The notes below the pieces were generated by a model. The model was not told the DNA's origin. It did no database searches and saw only the letters and a program-made list of their open reading frames with translations. This document shows positions 3,051-52,812 of a stretch of DNA of 52,932 nucleotides, in pieces. Both the position numbers and the translations under genes were made by a program. Location of the stretch: the NCBI GenBank assembly GCA_036448795.1, contig JAZFXQ010000057.1, positions 1-52,932 of the forward strand, read 5' to 3'. This DNA is from Candidatus Margulisiibacteriota bacterium (GTDB lineage: Bacteria; Margulisbacteria; WOR-1; O2-12-FULL-45-9). Within the stretch, counting starts at the first letter, position 1; each line of letters begins with the position of its first letter.

Positions 3051-3263
3051 TTACTCTTTCTCCTTTTTACCCTTTCCCTTTTTTTCTTTCATTTTGATGA
3101 TGGGCTGGCCTTTGTATTTGCCGCAGGCAGGACAGGCATGGTGGGAGAGAATGGGGGCTCCGCATTCGGGACAGCGGCTGAGGTTGACCGGAGAGAGTCT
3201 ATAATTCGAAAATCTCCTTTTTCCCTGACGGACGTTTGAGTGTCTTTTTTTCGGCATGGGCAT
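3051..3263 (-). CDS. rpmF: 50S ribosomal protein L32 with Lys/Glu-rich C-terminal tail
   Basis: Starts MPMPKKRHSNVRQGKRR and has a CPECG...CPACG zinc ribbon. Its stop abuts the plsX start. Confidence 0.9.
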   Translation of the reverse strand: MPMPKKRHSNVRQGKRRFSNYRLSPVNLSRCPECGAPILSHHACPACGKYKGQPIIKMKEKKGKGKKEKE

Positions 3264-3266
3264 GGC

Positions 3267-3710
3267 TTATTCTCCTTTTGTTTGTGTCGGGATCCCCGTG
3301 CAGTCCGGCGAACACAAAGTCTTTATGGGTATGGCCAGCAAGAGATTTTGTCTGATCACTTCAGTAAGGTCGATGCTGTTATCCTTTTCAATTGGATAGA
3401 TAAAATCCGCTTCCTTTAGCTCAGTTTCTCCGCCGCCCTTGAATTCGGTCGGTCTTCTGGAAAATTCCTCCTCGATTTCAACCGCAAGAGGATATTTAAA
3501 AGTTTTCAGGCATCTTGAGCATTCCAGCTCGATTTCAGTTTCAACCCGTCCCTTTACCAGAACCGAAGCGCCGGTACTTACAAGATGCAGCCTTATTTTG
3601 GCCGGCTTGGTCAGGCTGAAGTCATCTTCCGGGTACCTTAATTTTTCAGCCTGCTCCAGGTCTGCCTCGTTCCCAACCTTCTGCAGCAGCTCGGTAAGGT
3701 CAATTTTCAC
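3267..3710 (-). CDS. DUF177/YceD-family protein
   Basis: 147-aa acidic protein with CSRCL...CSPDC cysteine pairs, immediately upstream of rpmF as in most bacteria. The start codon is GTG. Confidence 0.75.
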   Translation of the reverse strand: MKIDLTELLQKVGNEADLEQAEKLRYPEDDFSLTKPAKIRLHLVSTGASVLVKGRVETEIELECSRCLKTFKYPLAVEIEEEFSRRPTEFKGGGETELKEADFIYPIEKDNSIDLTEVIRQNLLLAIPIKTLCSPDCTGIPTQTKGE

Positions 3711-12953: not shown

Positions 12954-14201
12954 ATGAGGAAGATTTTAGTTTCGCTACTCCTGCTTTTATTTTTTACCTC
13001 TCTGGTGAAAGCTGGGATTTTTATCTCTGAACCTAAAGATAAGTTGATCACCTTTAACGAAGTTGTGATGCTGCGTGGGGCGTCAAAAGAATTAGATATT
13101 CTCAAGGTTAATGGGCAAAAAATAAAATTTGAGCCGGACGGATCTTTTTCCTGCGGTCTGGTTCTGAAACCCGGCAAGAACTATGTCGAAGTGCGGGCCC
13201 TGGATAAAGACAAGAATCATTTTGTCAAGAAAATCCGTATTTTAAGGCTAAAGACCTATCCGGACATGGAAATCCTCTATGATGGAAAAAAGCATTGGGC
13301 GCGCAACCAAGTTATATATCTTTCCAGTCTGGGATTTATTGAAGGGTATCCCGATAACTATTTTTTCCCGGGGAATCCGATAACCCGGGGGGAATTTGCC
13401 ACTTGGATCGCTCGCATAAAGGGGTTCAAGATACCGATTTTGACCGAGGATGTGTTTTTTGATGTTCCGAAAGAACACTGGAGAGCCCCTTATATTAAGG
13501 TGGTCGTGGATGCCGGCTTTTTGAGCGGCTATACTAATGAGACTTTTGGGATTGATGATCCCATTTCTCGCCGCGAAGCCGCGCAGGTTACGGTGGTCAC
13601 CGAAGGTCTCAGTGTGGGTGAGAAAATAAGGTCATTCTTTATCGATGTCCCAAGGGAGGAAGAGGGAGCTACCCCGATTTATGTTGCAGGCGAAAAAGGA
13701 TTGGTAAAGGGGGTTTATGAAAACATCCCGGTTTATGATCCAGATCGAGCTTTGACTCGAGCAGAAGCGGCGGTGTTGCTGGCTAGATTCGCGCGTCCGA
13801 TTAACAGCATACGCTACTTATTTGATTTTGGGAGGGGTTTTTCAGAAGTAAATTATTGCAGTCTGAATGTTCCTCCGGAGGTTGTTTATTTTTGGACTGA
13901 ACCCGGCAGAATACGCCGCGCAGAAAGGACAACGGTTAGAGTGCGGGCGCAAATTGCTTCGCGGGAAAGGTTCCTGCCTATTTCCACCGTTAAGGTTAAC
14001 CTGTCGGAGGTTGGGGGAGTACCCGACACCAAGATGTTTGATGATGGTACCCACGGAGATGAGGAAAAAAATGATCTTATTTATTCGCTCAATCTTTCTC
14101 TGGAACCTAAAGTGAGTGGGGCCAAAGTTCTAATAGTTACTGCGGTTGACCAGTTAGGGTGGGAAGGCAAAAGGCAAACCTCGCTGTTGATAGTCGAATG
14201 A
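12954..14201 (+). CDS. secreted SLH-domain protein with Ig-like domains
   Basis: Signal peptide, an N-terminal Ig-like segment, three SLH repeats (FFPGNPITRGEFATWIARI; FFDVPKEHWRAPYIKVVVDAGF; DPDRALTRAEAAVLLARF), and a C-terminal Ig-like domain with DDGTHGDE. Confidence 0.8.
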   Translation: MRKILVSLLLLLFFTSLVKAGIFISEPKDKLITFNEVVMLRGASKELDILKVNGQKIKFEPDGSFSCGLVLKPGKNYVEVRALDKDKNHFVKKIRILRLKTYPDMEILYDGKKHWARNQVIYLSSLGFIEGYPDNYFFPGNPITRGEFATWIARIKGFKIPILTEDVFFDVPKEHWRAPYIKVVVDAGFLSGYTNETFGIDDPISRREAAQVTVVTEGLSVGEKIRSFFIDVPREEEGATPIYVAGEKGLVKGVYENIPVYDPDRALTRAEAAVLLARFARPINSIRYLFDFGRGFSEVNYCSLNVPPEVVYFWTEPGRIRRAERTTVRVRAQIASRERFLPISTVKVNLSEVGGVPDTKMFDDGTHGDEEKNDLIYSLNLSLEPKVSGAKVLIVTAVDQLGWEGKRQTSLLIVE

Positions 14202-15832
14202 TGAGAAACCAACTAATTTTCATATTTATTTTGTCATTTGTCATTCTGGCGCTGCCTACCCATGCTCAATTGGGAGGGCTGGGGATTAATCCTTTTGACA
14301 TCGAGATCGGAAGTAGGCCGCTTGGAATGGGAGGGGCTTTTGCCGGCTTGGCGGATGATATGAATGCGGCCTTTTACAATCCGGGCGGGCTGGCTTGGGC
14401 AAAAGGGATTTCACTCAGCCTAAAAGATTTTGGGAATATTTCAGCAGTTCAAGCTTATCCCACTGGGTTTGGTTCCTCTCTTGGATTAGCAGTTATTACA
14501 AGTAAAATTTCGAATATTCCAATTCCCGCAGGTTCTGCTAATTCCAATAGTAATATCATCAGCCTCTCCTATGGGACAAAGCTGACCTTTTTGCCCGGCC
14601 TTTATAAAAGGCCTTTTTTTCAGCGCCTGGGGTTGGGCTTGAATATAAAAGGGTTGATGGGGCAGACTTTGAGGAGGACCGATGAGCCGGATCGCTCAGC
14701 AACCGGCTGGGACATGGATGTGGGGGTATTGTGGAAGGGAGAAGAATGGTGGTCAGCGGGGGTATCTTTGCAGAATATTCTTCCAGCCAAAACCTTAGGG
14801 GGAGGGATAATCAAGTGGGATGTTGGCGAGGAGGAAGGGATTCCAGCTGTTGGGAAGTTATCGGCTTCGGCTCGGTTAATCGGAGATATTGGTTCACCCA
14901 TTTTTATGGAAGGGAGAGAACTGCTTTTGGGTGGCGAGCTCGATTTTTCCAGGAATCGACCGATGCTGCTGCGTCTGGGAGCGGAGTGGAATTTTGCAAA
15001 AAGATATTATTTTAGAACAGGTTTCATGCAGCAGTATCAAAAAATCGGAATTTCTTCTGATATAAATTTTGGAATGGGTCTCCGTTTTGAGAGATGGGGA
15101 CTTGATTTTGTGAGTTACAGAGAACCCATTCAGGACGAACGCTTTTTCTGCGCCTCATTTCTTTATTTTCCCAAGGAATGGATAGTGGTTAGAAAACTGG
15201 ATGTTGAGAAGCCGGCGGTTATGATCGAGAGACCGATCGAGATGATTTCCCTTGAGGATAATATTGTTACTTATGATGATAAGATCGAGGTTTTTGGCAA
15301 GGTCAAGCCGGGTGTGGAGGTTTATATAAACGGTTTAAGGGCTTCCTTGGGTCCGGACAATTCCTTTAAGACCGTGGTTCCCCTGCGCCTGAAGAAGAAT
15401 CTGATTGTAGTAGAGGCGCGCTACGAGGGCGAGAAGAAAGTGTGGAAATATAAGGTGCTCAGGAAGGCCAGGGTGAAGATTGCTGATGAGGAAAGGGTTA
15501 AGGATTTGGAAGAGAAAAAAGAGGCGGTGGAGTCTTTGGTTACCATGGGTGTGATCGAAATAACTCCTGAGGCAGAATTTGTAATGGAGGCCGGGGTCAC
15601 CCGAGGAGAGCTTTCGAGCTGGCTGGTAAAGGCTTCAGATATGAAACTGCCGGAGGTCAAAAAAGACCTTTTTGCAGACGTTCCCAAAGAACATCTCTTG
15701 GCTCCCTATATCAAGGTTGTTACTGATTTAAAGTTGTTGCTCCCCTTCCCAGACGGGACTTTTCGGCCGGGAGCAGTTGTTTCTAAGGAAGAGGGAGATG
15801 CGATTTTTGCGAAGTTTGGAGTAGCCAGATGA
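14198..15832 (+). CDS. outer-membrane beta-barrel-like protein (PorV/FadL-like N-terminus) with Ig-like domain and C-terminal SLH domain
   Basis: I chose the start at ATG 14198, which forms an ATGA overlap with the upstream stop. Signal peptide ..LALPTHA|Q. GSRPLGMGGAFAGLADDMNAAFYNPGGLA is followed by alternating barrel-like strands. The C-terminal FADVPKEHLLAPYIKVV..FPDGTFRP is an SLH repeat. Confidence 0.72.
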   Translation: MMRNQLIFIFILSFVILALPTHAQLGGLGINPFDIEIGSRPLGMGGAFAGLADDMNAAFYNPGGLAWAKGISLSLKDFGNISAVQAYPTGFGSSLGLAVITSKISNIPIPAGSANSNSNIISLSYGTKLTFLPGLYKRPFFQRLGLGLNIKGLMGQTLRRTDEPDRSATGWDMDVGVLWKGEEWWSAGVSLQNILPAKTLGGGIIKWDVGEEEGIPAVGKLSASARLIGDIGSPIFMEGRELLLGGELDFSRNRPMLLRLGAEWNFAKRYYFRTGFMQQYQKIGISSDINFGMGLRFERWGLDFVSYREPIQDERFFCASFLYFPKEWIVVRKLDVEKPAVMIERPIEMISLEDNIVTYDDKIEVFGKVKPGVEVYINGLRASLGPDNSFKTVVPLRLKKNLIVVEARYEGEKKVWKYKVLRKARVKIADEERVKDLEEKKEAVESLVTMGVIEITPEAEFVMEAGVTRGELSSWLVKASDMKLPEVKKDLFADVPKEHLLAPYIKVVTDLKLLLPFPDGTFRPGAVVSKEEGDAIFAKFGVAR

Positions 15833-23203: not shown

Positions 23204-23231
23204 TGAAATTTTCGTATAAAATTGTCGATAA
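23204..23231 (+). promoter_or_regulatory. sigma28-like promoter motif (site C)
   Basis: TGAAATTT tcgtataaaatt GTCGATAA atatatgaagaggag. ATG 23274 lies 42 nt downstream and is preceded by AGGAGG. Confidence 0.6.
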
Positions 23232-23273: not shown

Positions 23274-23852
23274 ATGGGAAGCACAGTAACAATAGTTGGC
23301 AGAGAAATGTTATCAAGGATGAATATAAGACCAGGAAAAATTTTTTCTACAAGGTATAGAGGGCTAAAAAATATTGGAATTCGCTTGCCGTACACTGCTG
23401 GCAAATTGCCAGGGGAATCTAGGATTTTTGTTTTAGTTGGAGAAATGGTCTATAGAGGAGTTGGCAAGAAAAAGGCACAACTAGCTGAAATGCTAAACCC
23501 ATTAGCTAATCTTGATTTGTCATTAATCTATACATTCGATGAGGAAGGATCAGAAATAGGTCGGCTAGTTTTGGAAGCCGATTTTTTGAGAGAATTTGAT
23601 GATGTGAAGAGAATGCTGCAGAAGGTGCCTGGATTGGAGAAAAAGATTCTAGCTTGCTTTCCGGCAGAATCAGAGCCAATGAGAGAAGAATCAATATATT
23701 GGAAGTATGCCCCGATAGCAGATTCAGACGGTTCAGTTGCAGAAAAAGCTATGTTAATTGAAGTATTCCGCAGAGACAAATTAAATAACCTTGCGAAACA
23801 AATCGCCCAAGCAATTCAAGCGCTTCAACTTGAAATTATTGGAGCTAAGTAA
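23274..23852 (+). CDS. hypothetical protein (192 aa), no recognisable domain
   Basis: ORF with a strong SD (AAAGGAGG) in an AT-rich island, driven by motif site C. Confidence 0.55.
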   Translation: MGSTVTIVGREMLSRMNIRPGKIFSTRYRGLKNIGIRLPYTAGKLPGESRIFVLVGEMVYRGVGKKKAQLAEMLNPLANLDLSLIYTFDEEGSEIGRLVLEADFLREFDDVKRMLQKVPGLEKKILACFPAESEPMREESIYWKYAPIADSDGSVAEKAMLIEVFRRDKLNNLAKQIAQAIQALQLEIIGAK

Positions 23853-29213: not shown

Positions 29214-30119
29214 TTACTTTTCGAGAACTAACCGGACTGGTGAAGGGAATGTATGATTCTTGCCTTTATATTTAAAACTGAGGAAATCAACATGAATATC
29301 TAGATAGTCAGCGTAGGCGGTGGTCGCGCTTTCCGAAATTGGCTCAACTTTTACTGGCCCTTTTGCCGGTAGAGCGATCTTGTTCTCGATCATATATTTG
29401 GCCAGCTCTAGTTTGAACTTGCTCACATTTCCTCTCTTAATAAGACCAAGCTGCCACGCTCTCTTTTTGCTTCCCTTTTCGCATATATTGGAATCGCGCC
29501 CATGATCCCTCCATGGTTTAACGCGAAGCCTCTTTGCTAAATTATACACATCCATATTAACGTATGGTCTTTTCGCTGCTCGTGAAAGCCAGGGGTGTTT
29601 TATTTTATCCGCCCATCCGATCTCCTCCCTGCTTTCCGTTTGCAATTCATTGATCTGTTCCGGGGTAAAGTACTCTGGATTTTTATCTTTGAAGGTCTCA
29701 CGTATTCCGTCGCGTTGAATTATAAGGGCTTCAGCAAAACGAACGGTTTTATCCTTATATTTAAAACCCACGAAAAGGAAAACCGCCCGGTTGCAAAAAA
29801 AGTCCTGTTGCCAATTTTTCGTATCGCTTTCTGAAAATGGCTCGATCTCTATGGTGCCCCTTTGGGAGATTTTGATCTTCTCGGCGAGCAGTGCCTGCGC
29901 TATTTCAAGTTTGATCTTGCTCCGATTTGTCCGCTCGAACGATGATAGTTTCTCCAGAAAGAGACCCTCTCCCCGTCTAAAATTTCGCCAATTTTTTATC
30001 CGGATTCTCTTTGCCAGATTATATACGTCCATATTGATGCCTTTTTTTAGCGCCATTTGAGAAAGGAAGGGGCGCCTTACTTTCTCTGCCAACCCCATTC
30101 TAGCTCCAGCTGTAACCAT
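29214..30119 (-). CDS. hypothetical protein with an internal two-fold duplication (301 aa)
   Basis: SD GGGGGA lies 8 nt before the ATG. The two halves share NMDVYNLAKR(I/L)R(I/V)K.WR, SK(I/F)KLE(I/L)A, (I/V)EP(F/I)SES and FKYK.K...F. Confidence 0.6.
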   Translation of the reverse strand: MVTAGARMGLAEKVRRPFLSQMALKKGINMDVYNLAKRIRIKNWRNFRRGEGLFLEKLSSFERTNRSKIKLEIAQALLAEKIKISQRGTIEIEPFSESDTKNWQQDFFCNRAVFLFVGFKYKDKTVRFAEALIIQRDGIRETFKDKNPEYFTPEQINELQTESREEIGWADKIKHPWLSRAAKRPYVNMDVYNLAKRLRVKPWRDHGRDSNICEKGSKKRAWQLGLIKRGNVSKFKLELAKYMIENKIALPAKGPVKVEPISESATTAYADYLDIHVDFLSFKYKGKNHTFPSPVRLVLEK

Positions 30120-30202
30120 TTTTTGTTCCCCCTTAATTTATATTTTAGTTTTTCAGATATCGACCTTCGTCAGCCTCTTTGGGCATCTGAGTTTCCAAAA
30201 TT

Positions 30203-30233
30203 TTAGGGAACGTACTCTCCGCACGTTCCCTAA
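30203..30233 (-). terminator. perfect 11-bp stem hairpin: terminator of the radical-SAM gene and/or attenuator in the leader of 29214-30119
   Basis: TTAGGGAACGT actctccgc ACGTTCCCTAA. On the - strand it is followed by AATTTTGG. It lies downstream of motif site E. Confidence 0.45.
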
Positions 30234-30275
30234 GTTTTTCCTTATTTGCGGAGAGCAAATGTCTCTCTATATGTA

Positions 30276-30303
30276 TTATCGTCACTTTTTGGAAGAAATT
30301 TCA
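30276..30303 (-). promoter_or_regulatory. sigma28-like promoter motif (site E)
   Basis: Reverse strand reads TGAAATTT cttccaaaaagt GACGATAA tacatatagagagac, 156 nt upstream of ATG 30119. Confidence 0.6.
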
Positions 30304-41817: not shown

Positions 41818-42579
41818 ATGACAACCATCGGAGTGATCTATAAAAAGGAAGACAGCTTGATCGCGGGAACCGCGCAGCAGGTCATAAAAGAGCTCAAGAA
41901 AATGGGATATAAGCTCGATCTGGCAAGGGCCAGGTTTGTCTTAACTTTTGGGGGCGATGGAACCATTCTGCGCGCAGCCAGGATCCTGGCAAAAAGTAAG
42001 ACCCCCATCTTAGGGGTCCATCTGGGAGGCCTTGGGTTTTTGTCGGAGATCGAGCTGCATGAGCTTAGCGACGCCCTGGAGCGGATCAAGAAGGGCAAAT
42101 TTATTATTGATGAAAGAGCCATGCTCGAGGCCATGCTAGGCGGAAGAAAACTTATTGCCTTAAACGATATTGTAATCAGCAATAGCGGCATTGCGCGTGT
42201 GATAAAATTGGAGGTTAAGGGAGTGGCGGAGTACACTTCAGACGGCATAATCTTTTCAACCGCTACCGGCTCCACCGCCTACAATCTTTCTGCGGGTGGC
42301 CCGCTTCTTACCCCGGATTCACAAAGTATGGTCATCTCGGCTATCTCTCCGCACAGCATCAGTACTCGTCCGCTGGTGCTCGAAAAACCGGTTACCGCAG
42401 TATTGATCCGGGGGAAGGAGGCCATCCTAACTGCTGACGGTCAACACCTTGTCCCGCTGCATGAAACGCAAAAAATACGGATTTATAAATCAAAATTTAA
42501 GACCAGATTTATCCGTTTGAAGGAATATAATTTCTTTGAGAGGGTAAAGAATGTCTTTGGCTTTGGGCCCAGGACTTAA
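41818..42579 (+). CDS. nadK: NAD kinase
   Basis: FGGDGTILRAAR, GHLGFL-like (LGGLGFLSE) and STGSTAYNLSAGGP motifs. SD GGGAGG. Confidence 0.85.
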   Translation: MTTIGVIYKKEDSLIAGTAQQVIKELKKMGYKLDLARARFVLTFGGDGTILRAARILAKSKTPILGVHLGGLGFLSEIELHELSDALERIKKGKFIIDERAMLEAMLGGRKLIALNDIVISNSGIARVIKLEVKGVAEYTSDGIIFSTATGSTAYNLSAGGPLLTPDSQSMVISAISPHSISTRPLVLEKPVTAVLIRGKEAILTADGQHLVPLHETQKIRIYKSKFKTRFIRLKEYNFFERVKNVFGFGPRT

Positions 42580-42803
42580 TTCAGGAAGGAGCCGCTGTTG
42601 AGGGAGACTAATTTTGAGATGTCATCAATTAAAACAAAATAGACCGGATCAGATAAGTTCGGCGCTCCGGTTTTAGAGAAGATCGGGAAAAGTGTGACCT
42701 TGTGCATTTCTGAATTGATCAATTTCTTCAGGTATTTTTGAAGGGCAAACTTTTCCATGGCTTCAATTACTTTTGCGTTGTTCATGGTGTTCATCTTTTT
42801 CAC
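42576..42803 (-). CDS. small hypothetical protein (75 aa)
   Basis: Second ORF of a two-gene unit, 2 nt after the upstream stop. AT-rich, no recognisable domain. Its 3' end overlaps the nadK stop by 4 nt. Confidence 0.4.
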   Translation of the reverse strand: MKKMNTMNNAKVIEAMEKFALQKYLKKLINSEMHKVTLFPIFSKTGAPNLSDPVYFVLIDDISKLVSLNSGSFLN

Positions 42804-42805
42804 CT

Positions 42806-43003
42806 CTAGAAGTAGGATTTGTTTCCGGCTTCACGCTTTAGAAACATGTCTGCAAAAACTCTTATGAATTGGCCAGAAGTCTTGACCAAGTTCTTTTCAA
42901 TATGCAATGCATCTCGTATATGAGCCCGCCTGGTCTTTCCCGGCTGATTGATTAGCGCTACATCAAAATTTCTTCTATCTGCATTTTCGCGATTCATATT
43001 CAT
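42806..43003 (-). CDS. small hypothetical protein (65 aa)
   Basis: MNMNRENADRRNFDVALINQPGKTRRAHIRDAL.. lies 14 nt downstream of motif site A. GAGAGGGA precedes the ATGs at 43003 and 42997. Confidence 0.45.
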   Translation of the reverse strand: MNMNRENADRRNFDVALINQPGKTRRAHIRDALHIEKNLVKTSGQFIRVFADMFLKREAGNKSYF

Positions 43004-43017
43004 TCCCTCTCATATAT

Positions 43018-43045
43018 ATATCGACAGATTTTCACGAAAATTTCA
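43018..43045 (-). promoter_or_regulatory. sigma28-like promoter motif (site A)
   Basis: Reverse strand reads TGAAATTT tcgtgaaaatct GTCGATAT atatatgagaggga ATG. Confidence 0.6.
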
Positions 43046-44386: not shown

Positions 44387-45898
44387 CTATTTTGTAATAC
44401 TGTGGAGAATATATGCCGCTTCGGCCCGGGAGAAATCCTTATTAGGCTCAAGGCTGTCTCCGGGAATATAATCTAACAATCCGGCTTTCTTCGCGGCAAT
44501 AATATTTGGGGCAGCCCAGTGGCTGGCAGGAAGATCAATGAAGGGAGATTCTTCTCTGATCGGCTTTAGGTTTGCAAATCGGGATAGGATAAGCACCCCT
44601 TCAACCCGGTTCAAGGTTTTTGAGGGTTGAAAAGTCCCATCCGGATATCCGCCGACTAATTTGATGTCTACGGCGGCCTTAATATAAGGTGCGGCCCAGT
44701 GTTTGACCGGAAGATCATTAAAAATTTGCTCTTTAGGTTTTGCAACCTTTATCTTTTTAGCTTTAATAAGTAGGGTGCTAAGCTCAGCTCGGGTTAAAGT
44801 CTTTTCTGGTTTGAAAGTCCCGTCTGGATATCCGCCGATGATTCCTTTTTCAGCTAGGGTTTCTATGGCTTCTTTAGCCCAATACCCTTGGGGCACATCC
44901 GAAAATCCAGGAGGAGCTTTAACTTTCTTGGGTGGAGCTTTTATTTTCTTTTCTGGCAGAAGATAGGAAAACGTGAAGTAATGGGTAGAATTTGCTGAAA
45001 GAAGGGTGTCTATGTAGTAGGCATAATCAAATGAAAATCCATTGGAGTTCAGACCGATTCCCAATCCCAGATTGGTAGTTGCTTCATTTTGGTTTATGGC
45101 AATTTGATCTAGCCCCCCTCGAATAGCGAGTAGCTCTGAATATCTCCATTCGACTCCGGCATGGAGTAGAAGGGGGGAGTTGCGGGCATAATCCAGGTCT
45201 CCCGTGATCAGTAAGTCATTTCGAGGAGTGTAAGCGCAACCGATCTTGGTATTGAAAGGGATTCCTTCTTTTTCTCCCGTACCCCAGGTAATTGAAGCAA
45301 TGCTTGCGGGCAGGGTGTTCTGCTGGGATACCCCGAGACTGAAATCTTTTCTCGGTTTCCAGAGAAGACCGAGGTCCATGTCAAAGCCGGAGGCAGTGCT
45401 TCCGGAAGAGCCGCTAAAGCCTTTGCTGAAAAGCTTCAGGGTGGCGCCGGCTGCCAGATTTTCCATGATCTCTTTTCCATAAACCAGGGAAATAACGCTG
45501 TTTGAATAGTCAAATGAAGTCCCGCTTGCCACGATTCGGCTGTCTGCATCCCGGGTAGCAATTTGAATCCCTGAGGTTAATCCACCAAGATAGGATAGTC
45601 CAAATGTTCCCCAGGGAGCCTGATATCCCCCGCCCAGCAGGGTGTAAGTAATCTCTCCCTCAAGCAGGGTCGTGTACATACTGGTTGCGCCCCAGCCCTT
45701 GAAATCAGCGGCATTAGCCGGGTTTATGAACATGGAGTTGATATTACCCGCAAGGCTGGCTGCGGTGCGGCCCATGGCCAGGGACCTTGCACCTACCCCC
45801 AGTTTCATGGGATCCAGCGAAGCCGCATGACAAATCCCAAAACCAAATGACAGACTTAAAATAATCGACAAAATCCAAATTGTAAGTTTAGTTATCAT
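44387..45898 (-). CDS. outer-membrane beta-barrel-like protein with three C-terminal SLH domains (paralog of 14198-15832)
   Basis: Signal peptide ..GICHA|A. GARSLAMGRTAASLAGNINSMFINPANAA is followed by alternating strands. Three SLH repeats follow (FSDVPQGYWAKEAIE.., FNDLPVKHWAAPYIKAA.., FIDLPASHWAAPNII..). Confidence 0.75.
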   Translation of the reverse strand: MITKLTIWILSIILSLSFGFGICHAASLDPMKLGVGARSLAMGRTAASLAGNINSMFINPANAADFKGWGATSMYTTLLEGEITYTLLGGGYQAPWGTFGLSYLGGLTSGIQIATRDADSRIVASGTSFDYSNSVISLVYGKEIMENLAAGATLKLFSKGFSGSSGSTASGFDMDLGLLWKPRKDFSLGVSQQNTLPASIASITWGTGEKEGIPFNTKIGCAYTPRNDLLITGDLDYARNSPLLLHAGVEWRYSELLAIRGGLDQIAINQNEATTNLGLGIGLNSNGFSFDYAYYIDTLLSANSTHYFTFSYLLPEKKIKAPPKKVKAPPGFSDVPQGYWAKEAIETLAEKGIIGGYPDGTFKPEKTLTRAELSTLLIKAKKIKVAKPKEQIFNDLPVKHWAAPYIKAAVDIKLVGGYPDGTFQPSKTLNRVEGVLILSRFANLKPIREESPFIDLPASHWAAPNIIAAKKAGLLDYIPGDSLEPNKDFSRAEAAYILHSITK

Positions 45899-45971: not shown

Positions 45972-46997
45972 ATGGAGCGTTTTCTTAAAAGCCGCTACAA
46001 GATCGGTGAAAAAATCTCTGAAAATCCCTTTAGTGTGACCTATAAAGGGGCTTTCCTGGGCACCCATAAGCCGCTTGTCATAAAAATTTATAAGAGAGGG
46101 ACCCTGAATTCTGGCTTGATCAACCGCATGAAGCAGAAAGTCAGAGAGCTTTCCCTCATAAGTCATCATGGGATTGCAAAGTTGATCGACGGTGATTACG
46201 GCTGGCAGGGGTTTTACTACGTTCGGGAGTATATTAAAGGGGAAAGTCTTCAGCACATATTGGAAAGCAGTCAAAATATCGGGATTGAGAAGGCGGTTAA
46301 GATCGCTGAAGAAGTTTGTCATGCACTTGAATTTGCGCATAACAAGGGAATTATCCACGGGGCGATTAAACCTAACAATATTTTTATTGACTCACATGGG
46401 CTGGTGAGGGTAGCCGATTTTGTGATTGAGGGAGAAATCAAGGAGGCCATGCCGCAAAAGATCTTATCCCTCATGGATGATGGCAGGTATGCATCCCCTG
46501 AGGAATTGGCCGGAAAACCTGCTTCGGTTACCTCGGATGTCTACGCTTTGGGAATAATTCTCTATGAACTGGCCGTGAACCGCTGCGGTTTGGTTGAGGA
46601 AGGGCTCTCAAGCGGCTTGATAAAACTAAGGAACAAATCGTTATTGAATCAAGAAGAGCTGGCCAGCCTGCCGAGGTATCTCCAGGATGTTGTCAGCAGA
46701 GCCCTGCAAAGCGACCCGCAGCTGCGTTTCCCTTCAATGACTGAATTCCGTGAAAGCCTGGAAAAGAAAAATTTGGTCCTGAAGCGGCTTCCGCAGGAAG
46801 AATACATTACCCTTTTTGAAAACACGGTTACTCAATACGGCGGCGAGGAGCTTGATAAGGAAAGCGAGTCTCTAGAGGACTTAGGTCGGGTGAAAATTTC
46901 CTGGGGAAAAGAGAAACACAGGAATTGGATTTTGGCTTTGATCCTTGGAATAGCTTTTCTTTCTGGTATCTTATACGTATTTTTGTTCGCTTGGTAA
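45972..46997 (+). CDS. Hanks-type Ser/Thr kinase-fold protein with degenerate catalytic motifs (predicted pseudokinase) and a C-terminal TM helix
   Basis: Kinase fold markers are VIKIYK (Lys), SPE and the DFV segment. The catalytic loop reads IIHGAIKPNN instead of HRDxKxxN, and the Gly-rich loop reads ISENPFSVTY. C-terminal TM helix ILALILGIAFLSGILYVFLF. Confidence 0.78.
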   Translation: MERFLKSRYKIGEKISENPFSVTYKGAFLGTHKPLVIKIYKRGTLNSGLINRMKQKVRELSLISHHGIAKLIDGDYGWQGFYYVREYIKGESLQHILESSQNIGIEKAVKIAEEVCHALEFAHNKGIIHGAIKPNNIFIDSHGLVRVADFVIEGEIKEAMPQKILSLMDDGRYASPEELAGKPASVTSDVYALGIILYELAVNRCGLVEEGLSSGLIKLRNKSLLNQEELASLPRYLQDVVSRALQSDPQLRFPSMTEFRESLEKKNLVLKRLPQEEYITLFENTVTQYGGEELDKESESLEDLGRVKISWGKEKHRNWILALILGIAFLSGILYVFLFAW

Positions 46998-47011
46998 AAA
47001 CTTATCGGACT

Positions 47012-47674
47012 ATGCTTATTTCATATATTAGCTTTTATCTTATTTTTATTATCTCGATTTCCATCCTGATCGGTCTTCTTGTGTTGAGGTTAAATCTACC
47101 CAAGCCGCGCATGGTCATATCGATAATCGTCGCCATTATTATTTCGCCGCTCATCATAGGCTATCTTTATATTACCTATTTTACTTCTATTCCTGAAGCA
47201 GTTGTCCCGGACATGAGGGGTTTGCCTTTGGAAAAGGCTTTTGAGAAGCTTGAATCCCTGAAGCTTGAGGGGACCTTTGCCGGGACCGTATTTGATATGA
47301 AATATCCCGAGGGAAGCGTGGTGAATCAGCGGCCGGAAGGAGGGAGGATGGTTAAGATTGGAAGGGTGGTCAGGCTGGTGACCAGCTCCGGGAAAAGGAG
47401 GGTTATGGTTCCCAACCTTCTGGGCCGGCTTGCTGTTCAAGCTGAGGCTGTGCTGGCAGCCAAGGGTTTGCAATTGGGGAAAGTTGAACAGGATTTTGTG
47501 CCAGAGCTGGATTCGGGTATAATACTTACACAAAACCCCTTGCCGGGGGAAGAAGCGAAAGTTGGTTCTTATGTTAACATTACGGTTTCTGCCACAGAAG
47601 AACCAGAAATAATATTGGAAGCGACTGAGGAGGCAGAAGGCGCAGAAGAAGGAGGTTTTAAGTTTTGGTGGTAA
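47012..47674 (+). CDS. membrane protein with two extracytoplasmic PASTA domains
   Basis: Start at ATG 47012, 14 nt after the kinase stop. Two TM helices precede the PASTA units VPDMRGLPLEKAFEKL..VVNQRPEGG..VRLVTS and VPNLLGRLAVQAEAVL..ILTQNPLPG..VNITVS. Confidence 0.75.
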   Translation: MLISYISFYLIFIISISILIGLLVLRLNLPKPRMVISIIVAIIISPLIIGYLYITYFTSIPEAVVPDMRGLPLEKAFEKLESLKLEGTFAGTVFDMKYPEGSVVNQRPEGGRMVKIGRVVRLVTSSGKRRVMVPNLLGRLAVQAEAVLAAKGLQLGKVEQDFVPELDSGIILTQNPLPGEEAKVGSYVNITVSATEEPEIILEATEEAEGAEEGGFKFWW

Positions 47675-48339
47675 AATCTTCTAATAAACCCGGGATAAAG
47701 GTTGCCCCTTCCATTCTTTCAGCAGATTTTATAAATTTGGGGGCCGAAATAAAAAAAGTTGGAAAAGCCGGCGCGGACATGATCCATATCGATGTTATGG
47801 ATGGCCACTTTGTGCCAAATATTAGCATTGGGCCTCTGGTAGTGAAAGCTGCCAGGAAAGCCACCCAATTGCCGCTGGATGTGCACCTGATGATTGAAAA
47901 TCCAGATCGCTATATTCCGGACTTTGCCAAGGCCGGAGCGGATATAATTACCATACAGGCTGAGGCTTCAAAGAACCTGGATGAAGACATCGAGCTCATT
48001 AATCAAAACAATGTAAAGCCGGGGGTAGTGGTCAATCCGGATACCCCGATTGATTCCATCTTTCATGTTTTGGACAAGGTGGTTATGGTATTGATCATGT
48101 CGGTCAACCCGGGTTTTGAAGCCCAGAAGTTTATGCCGGAAGTTCTGCCAAAGATCAAGAAATTGAGATCAGAAATAGGAAAGAGGAAACTCAAGGTAGA
48201 CATCGAAGTCGACGGTGGCATCAATCTGGAAACTGCGCCAAAGGTGGTCTCCGCCGGAGCAAATGTGCTGGTGGCGGGGTCGGCTATATTTCACGCAAAA
48301 GACTACCAGAATGTCATCAAGAAATTAAAATCTTTGTAG
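47665..48339 (+). CDS. rpe: ribulose-phosphate 3-epimerase
   Basis: APSILSADF, HIDVMDGHFVPN and VDGGIN motifs. Non-ATG start (TTG 47665 or GTG 47668) after the SD GAAGGAGG. Confidence 0.88.
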   Translation: MVVKSSNKPGIKVAPSILSADFINLGAEIKKVGKAGADMIHIDVMDGHFVPNISIGPLVVKAARKATQLPLDVHLMIENPDRYIPDFAKAGADIITIQAEASKNLDEDIELINQNNVKPGVVVNPDTPIDSIFHVLDKVVMVLIMSVNPGFEAQKFMPEVLPKIKKLRSEIGKRKLKVDIEVDGGINLETAPKVVSAGANVLVAGSAIFHAKDYQNVIKKLKSL

Positions 48340-48358
48340 CTCCCTTTTTAAAAACACC

Positions 48359-48386
48359 TGAAATTTCACATTTTTTCTGCGGATAA
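48359..48386 (+). promoter_or_regulatory. sigma28-like promoter motif (site D)
   Basis: TGAAATTT cacattttttct GCGGATAA tatattagagagca. ATG 48425 lies 38 nt downstream. Confidence 0.6.
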
Positions 48387-48424
48387 TATATTAGAGAGCA
48401 CGGAAAGTTTTTGAGGAAAAAATC

Positions 48425-49222
48425 ATGTTTATAATGAGAAATAGTGTGCGTGCGGCCGGACCCAGGATTGCTTCCGGTAAAGAGATGAACGCAGATCAAT
48501 TATGCACTGCCCTGAAAAAAATACACAGGGGGGCGTCGCCCTGGATCTTTAACGCAACCGTTAGAACCCAGACCTCGCCTTTGCAACTCCGTCGGCTTGA
48601 CACTCGATCCTGCTATTGGATTGCCTCGGCCATGCCGATTAAGTTTAGCAGGTTTCTTGAATTCTTATCCGGCCTCAAAGGGAAACTCTTCAAGGCCTGG
48701 CTGATCTATGCGGGAAAAGAAAAGATCGAACACGAAGTTACTCTTACAAGTTCAGGGGTAAGCCTGGACGGGAGCCCTCACCAAACCAAAGGGCTGCCAG
48801 AGGGACTCGAGCTTGTTCGCCAGCAAGCGCCTGCTCTGATCAAAGGACAGACTTATAAGATCGGCATGAATGCGGGAGCGATTATTTTAGGCGAGCCGAG
48901 CGAGCATGGGCTGGGAATCGAAGCAAAATTACAGAAGATAGGGGTGAGCTCTTCATCATCCGGGTCGGAATCCAATCATTTTATGGCGGGAGTCACCGAT
49001 CTTGAGCAATTTCAAAGAGCTTTGTCGCCTCTGCTTGAGAAATCTGACTTCTTAGGACTGGAATTCGTTCAGCCCGCTTTATCGGTGGTGGTCAGAGAGG
49101 CCCGCATTTATCATGATCGGGTGAGAAAAAGTTTTTCTTGCGAATGTATTTTAGAGCCGGTGGCGCCTGAGATCGAGCGCAATCTGTTCAATGCGCTCTT
49201 TGATTCTGATACCAGGTCATAA
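48425..49222 (+). CDS. hypothetical protein (265 aa), no recognisable domain
   Basis: ORF downstream of motif site D. It is convergent with, and overlaps by 35 nt, the 3' end of 49188-50360. Confidence 0.5.
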   Translation: MFIMRNSVRAAGPRIASGKEMNADQLCTALKKIHRGASPWIFNATVRTQTSPLQLRRLDTRSCYWIASAMPIKFSRFLEFLSGLKGKLFKAWLIYAGKEKIEHEVTLTSSGVSLDGSPHQTKGLPEGLELVRQQAPALIKGQTYKIGMNAGAIILGEPSEHGLGIEAKLQKIGVSSSSSGSESNHFMAGVTDLEQFQRALSPLLEKSDFLGLEFVQPALSVVVREARIYHDRVRKSFSCECILEPVAPEIERNLFNALFDSDTRS

Positions 49223-50360
49223 GCTCAAATCTGATCGGAATATTTTCTAGGCAGTGTCCCGCCTCAGCCATTCTATTCTCCAAAGAAATAATCTCCCGGT
49301 TAATTTCGGTTCGGGTCAGATCTTTAAGGATTTTGCCGGAAGCGGAGATCGGGGTAGAGGAAAGGAGAAGACGGCGAAGAAGCTGCCGGATTGTCATTTG
49401 ATGCCCGTAAATATTTTCAAAATCAAATAATCGTTTGTGGGTCACAATGCGAATTTCGTAATTACCTTCTTTAATATCCTTTTGGTAAAGGCTGGGAAGA
49501 TCGAAGTTTTCAGGGTTTAAAAGAACGTCTTTCTGGGAGAGGGTTTTACGGTTTTTCCCCTTATATTGACTGCCCAATCCCAGGAACTGGAATATGAAAT
49601 CACCGAAACCGTAGCCATTATCGCCTTTTATTTCAAATATGATCAAGCGGCCGCTGTCCCGGTCCCGGCCGATAATGTCAAAAAACTCGATCTGGTTTAA
49701 GCTCCCCTTTTGAGAGAGAGTGGCATTGGCGTTCACAATTTCTATGTTTGTGTTTTGACCGATGTAAAGAATGGCTCTCAGCTCAGTGATCGCCCCTACG
49801 ATGTCGAAGTTGGTTATGTGGTTTGCAAGCAATCGATTGAGATATTTCTTAAAAAGGCCGTTGGTATTTTCCTCGGATAAAATCTTCAGGGCGTGAATGG
49901 CGTCCTGTAGCCAATCCTCGGTGAATTTTCCGCCTAATTTGTTCTGGATCCTCTGCTCAAAAGAGAGGGGTTGGGATGCAGCTGGAGAGGCGTTGTCATA
50001 AATGTCTAATATGCCTTGTAAGGGGCCTTGCGCCTTCTTTGCTAATTTATTTATTCTGCGATTATTTATTTGTATGCCTTGAACTTTATGCTCTAATATT
50101 TTTTCCAAATTATCTATGTGTTTGGGGAGCTTACTATGATCAAAAAATCTTGCGGGTAATGAATCTTTATCTAAGATTGCTGTTAATTTGTCAAATTTAG
50201 GTGCAAGTATTTTATGCGTTCCGAAAAGTTCAAGACCTTTAAGCGCAATGGTTTCCAGTCTGTCTCTTCGGATTGTATGGGGAGAGATAGCAGGCACGCT
50301 GCGCAATTTTAGCTGCGGGGTTGAATTTAATTTTCTGGCACCATTTAAGGATCCGGCCAT
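49188..50360 (-). CDS. hypothetical protein (390 aa) with a PD-(D/E)xK-like nuclease motif
   Basis: Start at ATG 50360 (MAGSLNG..), with GGAGGAG 8 nt upstream; the ORF-track start at 50393 is TTG and lies inside the promoter motif. The core IEFFDIIGRDRDSGRLIIFEIKG fits D-x(n)-E-x-K. Confidence 0.55.
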   Translation of the reverse strand: MAGSLNGARKLNSTPQLKLRSVPAISPHTIRRDRLETIALKGLELFGTHKILAPKFDKLTAILDKDSLPARFFDHSKLPKHIDNLEKILEHKVQGIQINNRRINKLAKKAQGPLQGILDIYDNASPAASQPLSFEQRIQNKLGGKFTEDWLQDAIHALKILSEENTNGLFKKYLNRLLANHITNFDIVGAITELRAILYIGQNTNIEIVNANATLSQKGSLNQIEFFDIIGRDRDSGRLIIFEIKGDNGYGFGDFIFQFLGLGSQYKGKNRKTLSQKDVLLNPENFDLPSLYQKDIKEGNYEIRIVTHKRLFDFENIYGHQMTIRQLLRRLLLSSTPISASGKILKDLTRTEINREIISLENRMAEAGHCLENIPIRFELMTWYQNQRAH

Positions 50361-50383
50361 CTTGTGACTCCTCCTGCATATAT

Positions 50384-50411
50384 ATATCGTCAAATTTCGC
50401 TCGAAATTTCA
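50384..50411 (-). promoter_or_regulatory. sigma28-like promoter motif (site B)
   Basis: Reverse strand reads TGAAATTT cgagcgaaattt GACGATAT atatatgcaggaggag, 23 nt before ATG 50360. Confidence 0.6.
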
Positions 50412-50420
50412 CTTTTTTAA

Positions 50421-50429
50421 TGATAAAAT
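50421..50429 (+). promoter_or_regulatory. extended -10 promoter, leaderless candidate for ribD
   Basis: TGaTAAAAT lies 9 nt before ATG 50439 with no SD and no room for a riboswitch. Confidence 0.45.
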
Positions 50430-50438
50430 AAAAGTCTG

Positions 50439-51533
50439 ATGTGGGCTGAAGATGATCTAAAGTTCATGCGCGATGTCCTTTCTTTGGCCAAATCCGCTGA
50501 GGGCAGAACCGCCCCGGATCCTTTGGTGGGGGCGGTCTTGGTCAAAGATGGCAGGATTATTTCCATGGGCTATCATGGAGAGGTTACTACTCCTCATGCG
50601 GAAGAATGGGCTATCCAGAAGGCAGGCAAAAATGCCAGGGGGGCCATTCTTTATCTTAACCTGGAGCCCTGCTGCCATTACGGGAATAATCCTCCCTGCA
50701 CGGATCTAATTATTGGCTCGGGCATAAAAAAAGTAGTTGCCTCAATGAAAGATCCGAATCCCCTGGTAAATGGAAAGGGCTTCAGGAGTTTGAAACGGCA
50801 TGGCATCAAAGTCAGGGTGGGCCTGTTTGAGAAAGAGGCCACGAAATTAAATGAGGTCTTCATTAAATATATCACGACCAAAAAGCCTTTTGTGGTTTTA
50901 AAGTCCGCTATGACCATAGATGGGAAGATCGCCACTCGAACCGGAGCCAGCCGCTGGGTAGCCTCACTTACTTCTCGGAAATATGCTCATCACCTGCGCA
51001 ATATCTACGATGCGATCCTGGTGGGAGAAGGAACGGTTTTGATCGATAATCCCAAACTCACGGTTCGCCTGGTCAAGAGAATTAAGAACCCTATTCGGAT
51101 CGTTTTGGATGCCTATGCGCGAACTCCCCTGAGGGCCAATGTTTTGAATACCAGAGGGGCGAAGACCATTATTGTAGTTGGCCCCAAGGCCCCCAAAAAG
51201 AAGGTTCGAGCCCTGGAGAACAAAGGAGCTGAGATCTTAAGGCTTTCCGCGCCCAAGGGGAAAATTGACCTAAAGGCCTTGATGAGGAAACTGGGGAAGA
51301 GGCAGATAACCAGTCTTCTGATCGAAGGGGGCGGAGAGGTGAATGCCTCTTTTTTTGAGTCAGGCCTGGTAGATAAAGCCATCTTTGTGGTTTCCCCCAA
51401 GATCTTTGGTGGACGGGATGCCAAAACCCCAGTTGAAGGGGAAGGAATAAAGCTTCCCAAACAGGCTATCTGTTTGAAAAACACCCATCTTGAGCAGGCG
51501 GGCGAAGATATTTTAGTTACAGGCTATCTGTAA
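50439..51533 (+). CDS. ribD: bifunctional riboflavin biosynthesis deaminase/reductase RibD
   Basis: The deaminase zinc site is HAEEWAI...PCCHYGNNPPC. The reductase domain has TIDGKIATRTG and LLIEGGG. Confidence 0.9.
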   Translation: MWAEDDLKFMRDVLSLAKSAEGRTAPDPLVGAVLVKDGRIISMGYHGEVTTPHAEEWAIQKAGKNARGAILYLNLEPCCHYGNNPPCTDLIIGSGIKKVVASMKDPNPLVNGKGFRSLKRHGIKVRVGLFEKEATKLNEVFIKYITTKKPFVVLKSAMTIDGKIATRTGASRWVASLTSRKYAHHLRNIYDAILVGEGTVLIDNPKLTVRLVKRIKNPIRIVLDAYARTPLRANVLNTRGAKTIIVVGPKAPKKKVRALENKGAEILRLSAPKGKIDLKALMRKLGKRQITSLLIEGGGEVNASFFESGLVDKAIFVVSPKIFGGRDAKTPVEGEGIKLPKQAICLKNTHLEQAGEDILVTGYL

Positions 51534-51534
51534 T

Positions 51535-52812
51535 ATGTGCTACGCCATCCCCGGAAAAGTAGTAGAAATCTCCGGAAAAACTGCTGTGGTCGATTACTTC
51601 GGAGAAAAAAGAAGGGCCATAAATGAGCTGAAAAGCTTGAGGATCGGGGACTTCATTTATGCTCAGGGGGGATTTGTGATCTCCAAAGTCTCCGAGGCCG
51701 AGGCCAAGCAGATCCTGGATATGTGGCGGGAGATGTTTTTCGCCCTGCGAAAGACCGACCTCCGGCTTTCCCGCTTGGAATTTGATGATATCGGAATTGA
51801 CCGAAAGTTTGCCCTTATCCTGGATAAAGCCGCGGAAGGAATGCCGCTTAAAAGAGAGGAGCTCCTCCGCCTTTTGCAGGCTAATAATCGAAGGGAGCTG
51901 AACCTGCTCTTTAAAGTCGCTAACTTCCTTCGCCAGAAACACCTGAAGAATGCCTGCTGTGTGCATGGAATTATTGAGTTTTCCAATCATTGTCAAAATG
52001 ACTGTGTCTATTGCGGCATTCGAAAGAGCAACGCTTCCCTGCCAAGATACCGCATGTCTGAAGAAGAGATCCTCCAGGCCGTGGGCGAGGCCGTAAATAA
52101 GCATGGATTTAAGGCCCTGGTCCTTCAGTCAGGAGAAGACCCCTATTTTACTCCGGATAGGTTAGCCGGGATCATAAAGGAGATCAGGGAGAAGTTCGCG
52201 GTTCTCATATTTATTTCGGTGGGAGAAATAGGAAGGAAGGGGTTAACCAAGCTATACCAGGCCGGGGCAAGAGGAGTGCTTTTGCGTTTCGAAACCAGTA
52301 ATTCGGAATTGTACTCTAAGCTTCACAATAAAGACAGCTTGGAAGACCGCCTGCAGGATTTGAGGGATGCTTTTGAACTGGGCTACCTTATCCTGACCGG
52401 GGGATTGATCGGGCTTCCAGAACAAACTGAAGAGGATTTATTGAATGATATTTTGCTGACCAAAGAGCTAAAGGCTGAAATGTATACTTCCGGACCGGTC
52501 CTTCCGAAGGGCCCCAAAAGCGAATTGGTCTTAAAAGTCCTGGCAGTCAGCAGAATCGTTGATCCGGAGAACGCGAAGATCGTGGTCACTACTGGTTTTG
52601 AGACCCTGGATCAGGATGCCCGGCGTTTGGGTCTTCTGGCTGGCGCAAATTCCATGATGCTTAATGTGACTCCCATGAAATATCGAAGATTTTATAATAT
52701 CTATCCCGATCGAGCGCATGTAAATGAGAAAATTGAAGATCAGATTAAGGATGCTTTGGAAATTCTTTATTCTTTGGGAAGAGCCCCTACGGATTTAGGA
52801 GTTTCTCAATAA
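51535..52812 (+). CDS. hydE: fusion of a HypC/HupF-like domain (aa 1-~72) to a HydE-type radical SAM [FeFe]-hydrogenase maturase
   Basis: The N-terminus MCYAIPGKVVEISGKTAVVDYFG...GDFIYAQGGFVIS is the HypC signature with Cys2. It is followed by IEFSNHCQNDCVYCGIRKSN (CxxxCxxC), VLQSGEDPYF and a BioB/HydE-like TIM barrel, with no stop between the two parts. Confidence 0.78.
   Translation: MCYAIPGKVVEISGKTAVVDYFGEKRRAINELKSLRIGDFIYAQGGFVISKVSEAEAKQILDMWREMFFALRKTDLRLSRLEFDDIGIDRKFALILDKAAEGMPLKREELLRLLQANNRRELNLLFKVANFLRQKHLKNACCVHGIIEFSNHCQNDCVYCGIRKSNASLPRYRMSEEEILQAVGEAVNKHGFKALVLQSGEDPYFTPDRLAGIIKEIREKFAVLIFISVGEIGRKGLTKLYQAGARGVLLRFETSNSELYSKLHNKDSLEDRLQDLRDAFELGYLILTGGLIGLPEQTEEDLLNDILLTKELKAEMYTSGPVLPKGPKSELVLKVLAVSRIVDPENAKIVVTTGFETLDQDARRLGLLAGANSMMLNVTPMKYRRFYNIYPDRAHVNEKIEDQIKDALEILYSLGRAPTDLGVSQ

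Follow-up and report, generated by a model that had tools for sequence, protein, structure and literature searches.

Colicin and pyocin DNases and the CdiA-CT/CdiI pairs are nuclease toxin-immunity systems, and some CdiA-CT domains have the PD-(D/E)xK fold. The R and M genes of some type II restriction-modification (R-M) systems are convergent, and DpnI/DpnII of Streptococcus pneumoniae are allelic R-M cassettes at a fixed locus. Convergent transcripts with overlapping 3' ends are also a feature of the type I toxin-antitoxin systems txpA/RatA and bsrG/SR4 of Bacillus subtilis, in which a small RNA serves as antitoxin against a small membrane peptide. To our knowledge, hardly any of the biology of Margulisbacteria, an uncultured lineage sister to Cyanobacteria, has been characterised by experiment. 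In this study, a convergent gene pair at 48359-50411 was investigated in a 52,932-nucleotide stretch of DNA (contig JAZFXQ010000057.1, hereafter the window) from a Candidatus Margulisiibacteriota genome bin. Both genes (V3T21_02440 and V3T21_02445) are recorded at NCBI as "hypothetical protein" and are called A and B here. The pair recurred with its tail-to-tail layout in every related locus with readable surroundings, each gene carried its own promoter-like motif, and the two genes diversified and were exchanged together. B is probably a PD-(D/E)xK nuclease, and we tentatively regard the locus as a self-contained module of a nuclease and its cognate partner, of the conflict or selfish type and under alternative-sigma control. 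The pair and its promoter-like motifs are located as follows.

48425-49222, plus strand: gene A, orphan protein of 265 amino acids (aa)
49188-50360, minus strand: gene B, 390 aa from its ATG, with a helical N-terminal half and a PD-(D/E)xK-like core
49188-49222, both strands: overlap of the coding 3' ends of A and B, 35 nucleotides (nt)
48359-48386, plus strand: A promoter-like motif TGAAATTT-N12-GCGGATAA, sigma-28-like, G/A replacing the consensus C before GATA
50384-50411, minus strand: B promoter-like motif TGAAATTT-N12-GACGATAT, of the pair the closer to the sigma-28 consensus

A convergent A homologue was found beside the B homologue in all 12 independent related loci with readable surroundings, spread over four genomic contexts, which is the strict co-inheritance of two adjacent genes seen in toxin-antitoxin and immunity pairs. 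The 3' ends of the coding regions overlapped in ten of these loci and were separated by 1 or 2 nt in the others (loci are given by their L numbers, and one by its B-family protein, P0009).

L003/L004/L005/L012: 35-nt overlap
L007: 35-nt overlap
L010: 35-nt overlap
L008: 47-nt overlap
L011: 23-nt overlap
L014: 32-nt overlap
L015: 18-nt overlap
L013: 56-nt overlap
L018: 6-nt overlap
P0009 contig: 4-nt overlap
L002: 2-nt gap
L016: 1-nt gap

The recurrence in 12 independent loci indicates that the layout is not an effect of chance or assembly. A first-pass annotation of the window had described the two open reading frames (ORFs) as a convergent pair with a 35-nt 3' overlap; the same coordinates, orientation and overlap were obtained here, the genes co-occurred and stayed convergent in the related genomes, and the overlap survived in better, independent assemblies. 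The ratio of nonsynonymous to synonymous substitution rates (dN/dS) was 0.22-0.27 for gene A, 0.29-0.45 for gene B and 0.08-0.12 for the neighbouring genes rpe and ribD. A and B are both under purifying selection and evolve faster than these neighbours, and the values identify both as real protein genes. Across lineages, rpe retained 71-93% identity, and identity fell as low as 26% for A and 25% for B. The A/B family is very rare: a search of 5.8 billion proteins returned only 2 further B proteins and 4 further A proteins, and a search with a HMMER profile through 1.84 billion cluster representatives gave 12 B-family clusters in total. A pattern scan of GTDB genomes returned no A or B relatives; because such a scan finds only exact matches to short degenerate patterns, this is weak evidence that they are absent.

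The start of gene A is placed by NCBI at Met70, which yields a protein of 196 aa and leaves out the first 69 residues (window 48425-48631). The 265-aa form was preferred because the homologues, of 265-269 aa, align over 99% of it and conserve its first 69 residues, the close relative L010 is stop-free across this stretch, and the promoter-like motif lies directly upstream of 48425. For gene B, a TTG-started version of 401 aa is also open. A truncated B in L007 was considered and rejected; the full frame and the promoter are intact, and a later start had been picked by the gene caller. The pair had been described as more AT-rich than rpe and ribD, which holds for B (42.3% GC, with 38.1% in its first 125 codons) and fails for A (49.5%), which lies above rpe (45.5%) and close to ribD (49.0%).

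The assignment of B as a probable nuclease is drawn from its sequence family and a structural model. The regions of B and its key invariant residues lie at the following positions.

49986-50360, minus strand: B residues 1-125, variable helical N-terminal module, 38% GC, absent in the 272-aa L018 form
49827-49961, minus strand: B residues ~134-178, three-helix unit (134-142, 148-163, 171-178)
49566-49811, minus strand: B residues 184-265, putative PD-(D/E)xK catalytic core
49191-49565, minus strand: B residues 266-390, conserved alpha/beta C-terminal region with SQxDVLLxPE and GNYEIR motifs and the invariant E302
49782-49784, minus strand: E193
49677-49679, minus strand: D228
49632-49634, minus strand: E243
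49626-49628, minus strand: K245
49587-49589, minus strand: Q258
49455-49457, minus strand: E302

Only ten columns were invariant in an alignment of 15 B-family members with identities down to 23%, namely, G189, E193, E225, F227, D228, E243, K245, Q258, G261 and E302; the stretch IEFFDIIGRDRDSGRLIIFEIKG lies at residues 224-246. The AlphaFold model of B, built from an input alignment of 3 sequences, is of moderate quality, with a mean predicted local distance difference test (pLDDT) score of 70.6 and values of 74-89 over most of the core. E193 is on a helix (184-201), D228 is at the start of a strand (229-233), E243 and K245 are on the strand 239-245, and Q258 is on a helix (252-260). The order and spacing of these residues are those of the catalytic residues of the PD-(D/E)xK (restriction-endonuclease) fold, and the succession of helices and strands fits its alpha-beta-beta-beta-alpha-beta core. 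B also shows the motif-level pattern of that fold, in which an acidic residue opens one core strand, the strand after it carries (D/E)xK and a helix ahead of both usually supplies a Glu. The model is helical up to residue 201, in agreement with the helical N-terminal half proposed for B in the first-pass annotation. The D...(D/E)xK core proposed there stood in so far as its residues are invariant and placed on fitting elements; the endonuclease fold itself did not reach significance (best Foldseek E = 0.014).

That best match, with a RecB-family nuclease (probability 0.80, below significance), was obtained against BFVD, where 18 of the 22 informatively named proteins among the top 50 matches were PD-(D/E)xK nucleases, individually non-significant. 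Foldseek against PDB gave a best E of 0.33, and the weak matches included ACE1/Cas4, MGME1, McrC, LmuA and RecU. The B family had only three Pfam matches, all sub-threshold, to UPF0102/YraN (E = 0.086), Hjc (E = 0.053) and SduA_C (E = 0.18), and those to UPF0102 and Hjc coincide exactly with the D...ExK stretch of B. In an hhalign comparison of the B family with E. coli YraN, E-x-D and E-x-K/R were in register (E = 0.19). Single-sequence and alignment scans of Pfam, NCBIfam, PHROGs and PADLOC returned nothing above threshold for B. A profile search of PDB sequences with the B family found no nuclease, and its sole borderline match was a RecX repeat (PDB 3e3v, E = 0.002; residues 135-177), which falls on the three-helix unit; this unit is duplicated in the homologue P0015, where it appears as an insertion in the alignment. 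B fits the motif definition of PD-(D/E)xK enzymes and fails the significance tests for the named families, and would thus represent a new family. Residues 1-125 evolve and recombine independently of the remainder of B, and the natural 272-aa form without them indicates that they are a separate module.

Gene A encodes a protein with a basic N-terminal 70 aa (pI 11.3) and a near-neutral remainder (pI 6.3). Near-invariant residues are W92, H103, E104, G111, D115, G116, Q216, P217, L219 and S220. The serine-rich stretch SSSSSGSES, previously pointed out as a linker, is present at residues 175-183 of A and is not conserved in other alleles. The earlier statement that A carries no recognisable motif was upheld: ten A-family members had no match in Pfam or PDB, and A had none in NCBIfam, PHROGs or PADLOC. 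No methyltransferase signature was detected in A and nine homologues against Pfam and PDB, or in A against NCBIfam. Its co-variation with B suggests that A may be a modulator or immunity protein.

Pairwise identities of A and of B residues 126-390 were correlated across 36 pairs (r = 0.81), and the correlation was 0.91 on the set that also had rpe. The identities of A and the B core correlated with those of rpe at only 0.15-0.48. Such joint diversification of a toxin-like domain and its partner is a property of toxin-immunity pairs. Exchange is visible as sharp mosaic boundaries when the window is compared with two relatives. The closest relative by rpe is L011, with 86-92% nucleotide and 91% protein identity in that gene. 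From 48296 as far as ~49990, nucleotide identity to L011 is ~50%, and protein identity is 41% for A and 44% for the B core. At 50000-50500, which holds B residues 1-125 and the B promoter, nucleotide identity is again 86-92%, and the first 125 aa of B are 82% identical. L010 is more distant by rpe (61-78% nucleotide and 79% protein identity, synonymous divergence dS 2.0), and from 48296 onward, across A and the 3' end of B, its nucleotide identity to the window is 84-95%, with 86% protein identity and dS 0.26 for A and dS 0.16 for the 3' end of B. Lineages have thus swapped A together with B residues 126-390, as one cassette, at the rpe-ribD site.

48296-49985, both strands: exchanged cassette, comprising the final ~45 nt of rpe, the A promoter, gene A and B residues 126-390

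The crossovers lie in conserved coding sequence, which suggests ordinary homologous recombination. The L011 allele groups with those of L002 and P0009 (48-54% identity). P0009 adjoins ribD, which is consistent with the rpe-ribD site, and the same sample also holds a window-type allele; very divergent alleles therefore coexist at one locus. In a comparison of 46900-51400 with L011 by 100-nt windows, the flanks are mosaic (rpe 86-92%, the PASTA gene 70-84%, ribD 57-80%), which suggests repeated recombination around the locus.

The pair also occupies other genomic contexts. In L018 (1-4045), it separates trpB from trpA, its neighbour as a rule, and B has the 272-aa form; in L016 (1-2749), it follows trpB in the opposite orientation; and in L002, it lies between a HicAB pair and an AAA_14/DUF4143 gene. 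The right-hand neighbour of the pair is different in L008 and L015. Both promoters are always present where the pair lies outside rpe-ribD sites. The A/B module is discrete and movable. The first-pass annotation had taken the pair for an inserted two-gene module: it is discrete, occurs in at least 3 genomic contexts and is exchanged as a cassette, and its rpe-ribD position is old, not that of a recent insertion. The sharing of this site at 25% B identity argues against recent insertion in this genome. An outward-facing TGnTATA-like site was observed beside the B promoter in L018 and L002, which could drive the displaced neighbour gene.

The motif that precedes both genes, TGAAATTT-N12-GNSGATAW, occurs in 5 copies in the window, against 0.05 expected from shuffles. 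All 5 copies are intergenic and point at a downstream ORF; the three copies outside the pair are listed below.

23204-23231, plus strand: motif copy preceding the orphan gene 23274-23852 (192 aa)
30276-30303, minus strand: motif copy preceding the orphan gene 29214-30119 (301 aa)
43018-43045, minus strand: motif copy preceding the orphan gene 42806-43003 (65 aa), which is followed by a 75-aa ORF (42576-42803)

No family matches were found for these three other motif-preceded genes of the window. The B motif is conserved in all loci that extend to the start of B, those of unrelated context among them, and is followed by a conserved ATATATG..GGAG and then by a nearly invariant ribosome-binding region, AAGGAGTCAC(A/C)AGATG. 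Conservation of the A motif was seen in L003, L007, L010, L002, L011 and L018, each time upstream of A, and the motif is weaker in L008. The view that each gene has its own copy of a shared motif was thereby confirmed and extended across related loci. The motif before the 65-aa and 75-aa ORFs is likewise conserved in L011 (5554-5580) and L014 (6114-6140). In L015 (2735-2792), one copy lies farther upstream of A than the called start, and another orphan gene (2811-3680) has a divergent copy in front of it. B promoters always have CGATA, and A promoters always have GGATA or AGATA together with a weak sigma-70 score (CTGAAA-18-GATAAT for the A motif of the window), a character by which A might be produced without B. 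A role of the motif as a general housekeeping promoter was rejected; TTGACA/TATAAT-type sites lie upstream of metK, clpC, the kinase gene and the other housekeeping genes checked in the window, so that the motif marks a separate regulon. Together, the copies look like an alternative-sigma regulon of lineage-specific genes only.

The motif resembles a promoter of the sigma-28 (FliA/SigD) type. Sigma-28 promoters of E. coli include those of fliC (TAAAGGTT-N11-GACGATAA) and tar (TAAAGTTT-N11-GCCGATAA) (PMC4183435). Like these promoters, with their consensus TAAAGTTT-N11-GCCGATAA, the motif has a -10 element G(A/T/C)CGATA(A/T), as in GACGATAA of fliC, and an A/T-rich -35 block of 8 nt, and its overall length is within 1 nt. 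The CGATA(A/T) form of the -10 element is present for B and the three other window copies, and A has G/A for C. Unlike in sigma-28 regulons, the genes downstream of the motif are orphans and not recognisable flagellar or chemotaxis genes, and neither fliA nor flagellar genes were seen in the window. Two papers include Margulisbacteria among phyla that have flagellins or FlgV, a flagellar protein (PMC7018530, PMC11607428), which makes a FliA-type sigma factor plausible in the lineage.

Further observations were made on the surroundings of these promoters. The start codons of B and ribD are 78 nt apart (50361-50438), and the B promoter is back to back with a sigma-70-like site, listed here from a consensus match only.

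50401-50429, plus strand: sigma-70-like site TCGAAA-17-TAAAAT with TG, which may be the ribD promoter

No FMN riboswitch was found before ribD in the Rfam scan at E <= 1. The 301-aa orphan protein encoded at 29214-30119 (minus strand) has an internal duplication, in which MDVYNLAKR(I/L)R, (I/F)KLE(I/L)A and F(V/L)(G/S)FKYK occur twice each. Its leader (30120-30275) holds a strong hairpin, GGGAACGT...ACGTTCCC, and the promoter motif lies ~156 nt upstream of the gene.

On these data, the following mechanism is proposed. B would be a cytoplasmic Mg2+-dependent PD-(D/E)xK nuclease with an active site formed by E193, D228, E243-x-K245 and Q258, and its helical N-terminal part would act as a regulatory or targeting region in front of the active site. 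A would be the cognate partner, most likely binding the C-terminal two thirds of B and controlling B, in the role of an inhibitor or immunity protein or else as a regulatory subunit that B requires. From their separate, inward-facing sigma-28-type promoters, A and B would be induced by one alternative sigma factor and not by the housekeeping one. No terminator was found between or within the gene ends, and the ends of A and B overlap; convergent transcription would therefore produce mutually antisense RNA and polymerase collisions, by which the expression levels of A and B might be coupled. No conserved hairpin occurs in the A/B overlap (a 7-bp hairpin at ~49176-49199 is present only in the window and in the near-identical allele L010), and an Rfam scan of 47500-50800 gave nothing credible. 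An RNase III gene is present in the window. The module evolves fast, with very divergent alleles at the same site, recombination between lineages and occasional use of other sites.

If this proposal is true, the locus would hold a new family of restriction-endonuclease-fold nucleases together with a partner protein that has no recognisable fold. Its layout would also be unusual, in that two conserved protein genes overlap tail to tail and each has the same alternative-sigma promoter, and it may illustrate how convergent transcription couples expression in nature. With very divergent alleles being exchanged at a single site, the cognate specificity of A and B is open to direct testing, and the module offers a first handle on an orphan-only alternative-sigma regulon in Margulisbacteria.

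Fast evolution, coexisting divergent alleles, cassette exchange and relocation fit a conflict-type or selfish nuclease module, such as a toxin-immunity, restriction-like or addiction system, and this explanation is our leading, if tentative, one. Several points weigh against it. B had no statistically significant sequence or structure match to a known nuclease family, the AlphaFold model of A (pLDDT 37.8) was unusable for a fold search and A has no recognisable fold, and the PADLOC-DB 2.0 defence models gave no match for the pair, B reaching only Aga_Nuclease (E = 0.052) at residues 75-164, outside the core. Toxin-antitoxin and immunity pairs are normally co-directional, and A and B converge with their own motif each instead of sharing one promoter in an operon. 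There is no overt positive selection on A or B (dN/dS < 0.5). The -35 element of the motif is TGAAATTT and not TAAAGTTT, its spacer is N12 and not N11, and the sigma-28 dependence of A and B is judged by resemblance of sequence. No transposase or integrase accompanies the pair, and no relatives of A or B were found in viral contigs, plasmids or phages, an absence that speaks against carriage on a plasmid or phage. L014 retains the kinase-PASTA-rpe-A-B order at a B identity of only 25%, and the old rpe-ribD position fits a vertically kept, lineage-specific cellular function equally well. The last points are also what would be expected of a lineage-specific housekeeping complex, in which A and B would form a DNA- or RNA-processing enzyme of a motility-linked or late-stage alternative-sigma programme, inherited vertically at rpe-ribD, and the fast evolution would reflect weak constraint. 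The purifying selection on both genes and the same motif before other conserved orphan genes in the window, L011, L014 and L015 agree with this explanation. However, the discordance with the flanks (dS 0.16-0.26 against 2.0) points to horizontal cassette replacement, very divergent alleles occupy the same site even in one sample, and the pair also lies by trpB/trpA in two orientations and beside HicAB, which is rare behaviour for housekeeping complexes; we consider a housekeeping complex the main alternative, serious but unlikely.

Three further explanations are less likely. As a selfish homing-like or restriction-like element, B would cut chromosomes with a different allele or no cassette at all, repair from a cassette-bearing copy would spread the module with short flanks, and A would protect the site or assist B. 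Precise insertion between conserved genes at more than one site (rpe-ribD and trpB-trpA), an exchanged tract that extends a few tens of nucleotides into rpe, the mosaic flanks and the PD-(D/E)xK signature of B speak for such an element. We nevertheless regard it as improbable, given that homing endonuclease genes are normally single, A lacks a methyltransferase or other recognisable motif, no target site or duplication was identified, and the breakpoints in conserved coding sequence are those of ordinary homologous recombination. In a polymorphic exported toxin with immunity, the N-terminus of B would direct export, conceivably through the flagellar apparatus, its C-terminal nuclease would be the toxin, and A would confer immunity. 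A conserved N-terminal module next to a C-terminal part and a partner that both vary between close relatives (window against L011), the co-variation of A and the B core, and the divergent alleles in one sample would suit this arrangement. It is nonetheless very unlikely, since B lacks a signal peptide, a transmembrane segment and any known trafficking domain (hydropathy -0.39, no hydrophobic segment), the partner is convergent and not directly downstream, the natural short form of B lacks the whole N-terminal module, and no secretion genes are nearby. That A and B are unrelated neighbours, with a chance resemblance of the B motif to nucleases and an overlap that is a by-product of compact gene packing, could be argued from the lack of significant B homology to nucleases and of an assignable function for A. 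The adjacency and orientation kept in 12 of 12 loci, four of them outside rpe-ribD, the co-variation (r = 0.81) and the coincidence of the invariant columns with the catalytic pattern leave this explanation scarcely credible. The preferred nuclease-partner module also has a bolder form, namely, a previously unknown nuclease-immunity cassette for self/non-self recognition or addiction, in which the tail-to-tail overlap sets the ratio of the two proteins, a flagellar-type sigma factor is the switch, divergent alleles are exchangeable at one site across the lineage, and the partner has a new fold; we hold this form to be doubtful.

Elsewhere in the window, the genes at 14159-15832 (plus strand) and 44387-45898 (minus strand) are paralogues with sub-threshold matches to the PorV/PorQ family of outer-membrane barrels, and one of them adjoins a gene for an SLH-domain protein (12954-14201). 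The gene at 51535-52812 (plus strand) encodes a HupF/HypC-like N-terminal domain fused to a radical-SAM protein. This fusion is probably an [FeFe]-hydrogenase maturase, and it is kept in L003 and L012 beside a second radical-SAM/BATS gene.

Among described nucleases, the core of B is closest in pattern to YraN/UPF0102 (PF02021), Hjc (PF01870) and RecU. IEFFDII...LIIFEIK of B shows the same pattern at the same position on two successive strands, and a conserved Glu is present on the upstream helix. In contrast to these proteins, B is three times longer, with a helical N-terminus of ~180 residues and a conserved C-terminal extension of ~125 residues, and has an invariant Gln (Q258) after ExK, a feature of RecB/Cas4-type enzymes; no match to them passed the threshold (E = 0.05-0.19). 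A helical part followed by a PD-(D/E)xK core is also the arrangement of the defence nucleases Shedu SduA, Lamassu LmuA (Cap4-type), Hachiman HamA and the Argonaute-associated, Cas4-like ACE1, to which B gave weak matches (SduA_C at E = 0.18, LmuA and ACE1 in PDB, and the HamA C-terminal domain in BFVD). However, none of these matches was significant, no PADLOC match to their systems was obtained, and their partners (helicases, SMC-like ATPases and Argonautes) are absent, the partner here being a 265-aa orphan.

The type I toxin-antitoxin systems resemble the locus in that the A and B units converge and overlap at their 3' ends, from which antisense pairing would result. They differ in that both strands of the A/B locus encode conserved proteins under purifying selection, and no Rfam match was found. 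Polymorphic toxin-immunity pairs are alike in that a variable, nuclease-like C-terminus and the adjacent gene diversify and swap together, and the N-terminus can stay conserved; unlike them, B carries no domain for export or delivery, its partner gene converges on it and overlaps it instead of lying downstream on the same strand, and the locus is a housekeeping one. In type II R-M systems, a PD-(D/E)xK-type gene can likewise lie tail to tail with its partner. The pair departs from them in that A has no methyltransferase motif or family match, there is no control protein, and the promoters are of an alternative-sigma type. As in the DpnI/DpnII cassettes, unrelated-looking A/B alleles occupy one site between conserved genes and are exchanged via recombination in the flanks. 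The pair lacks the defining features of both toxin-immunity and R-M systems but shares traits with each.

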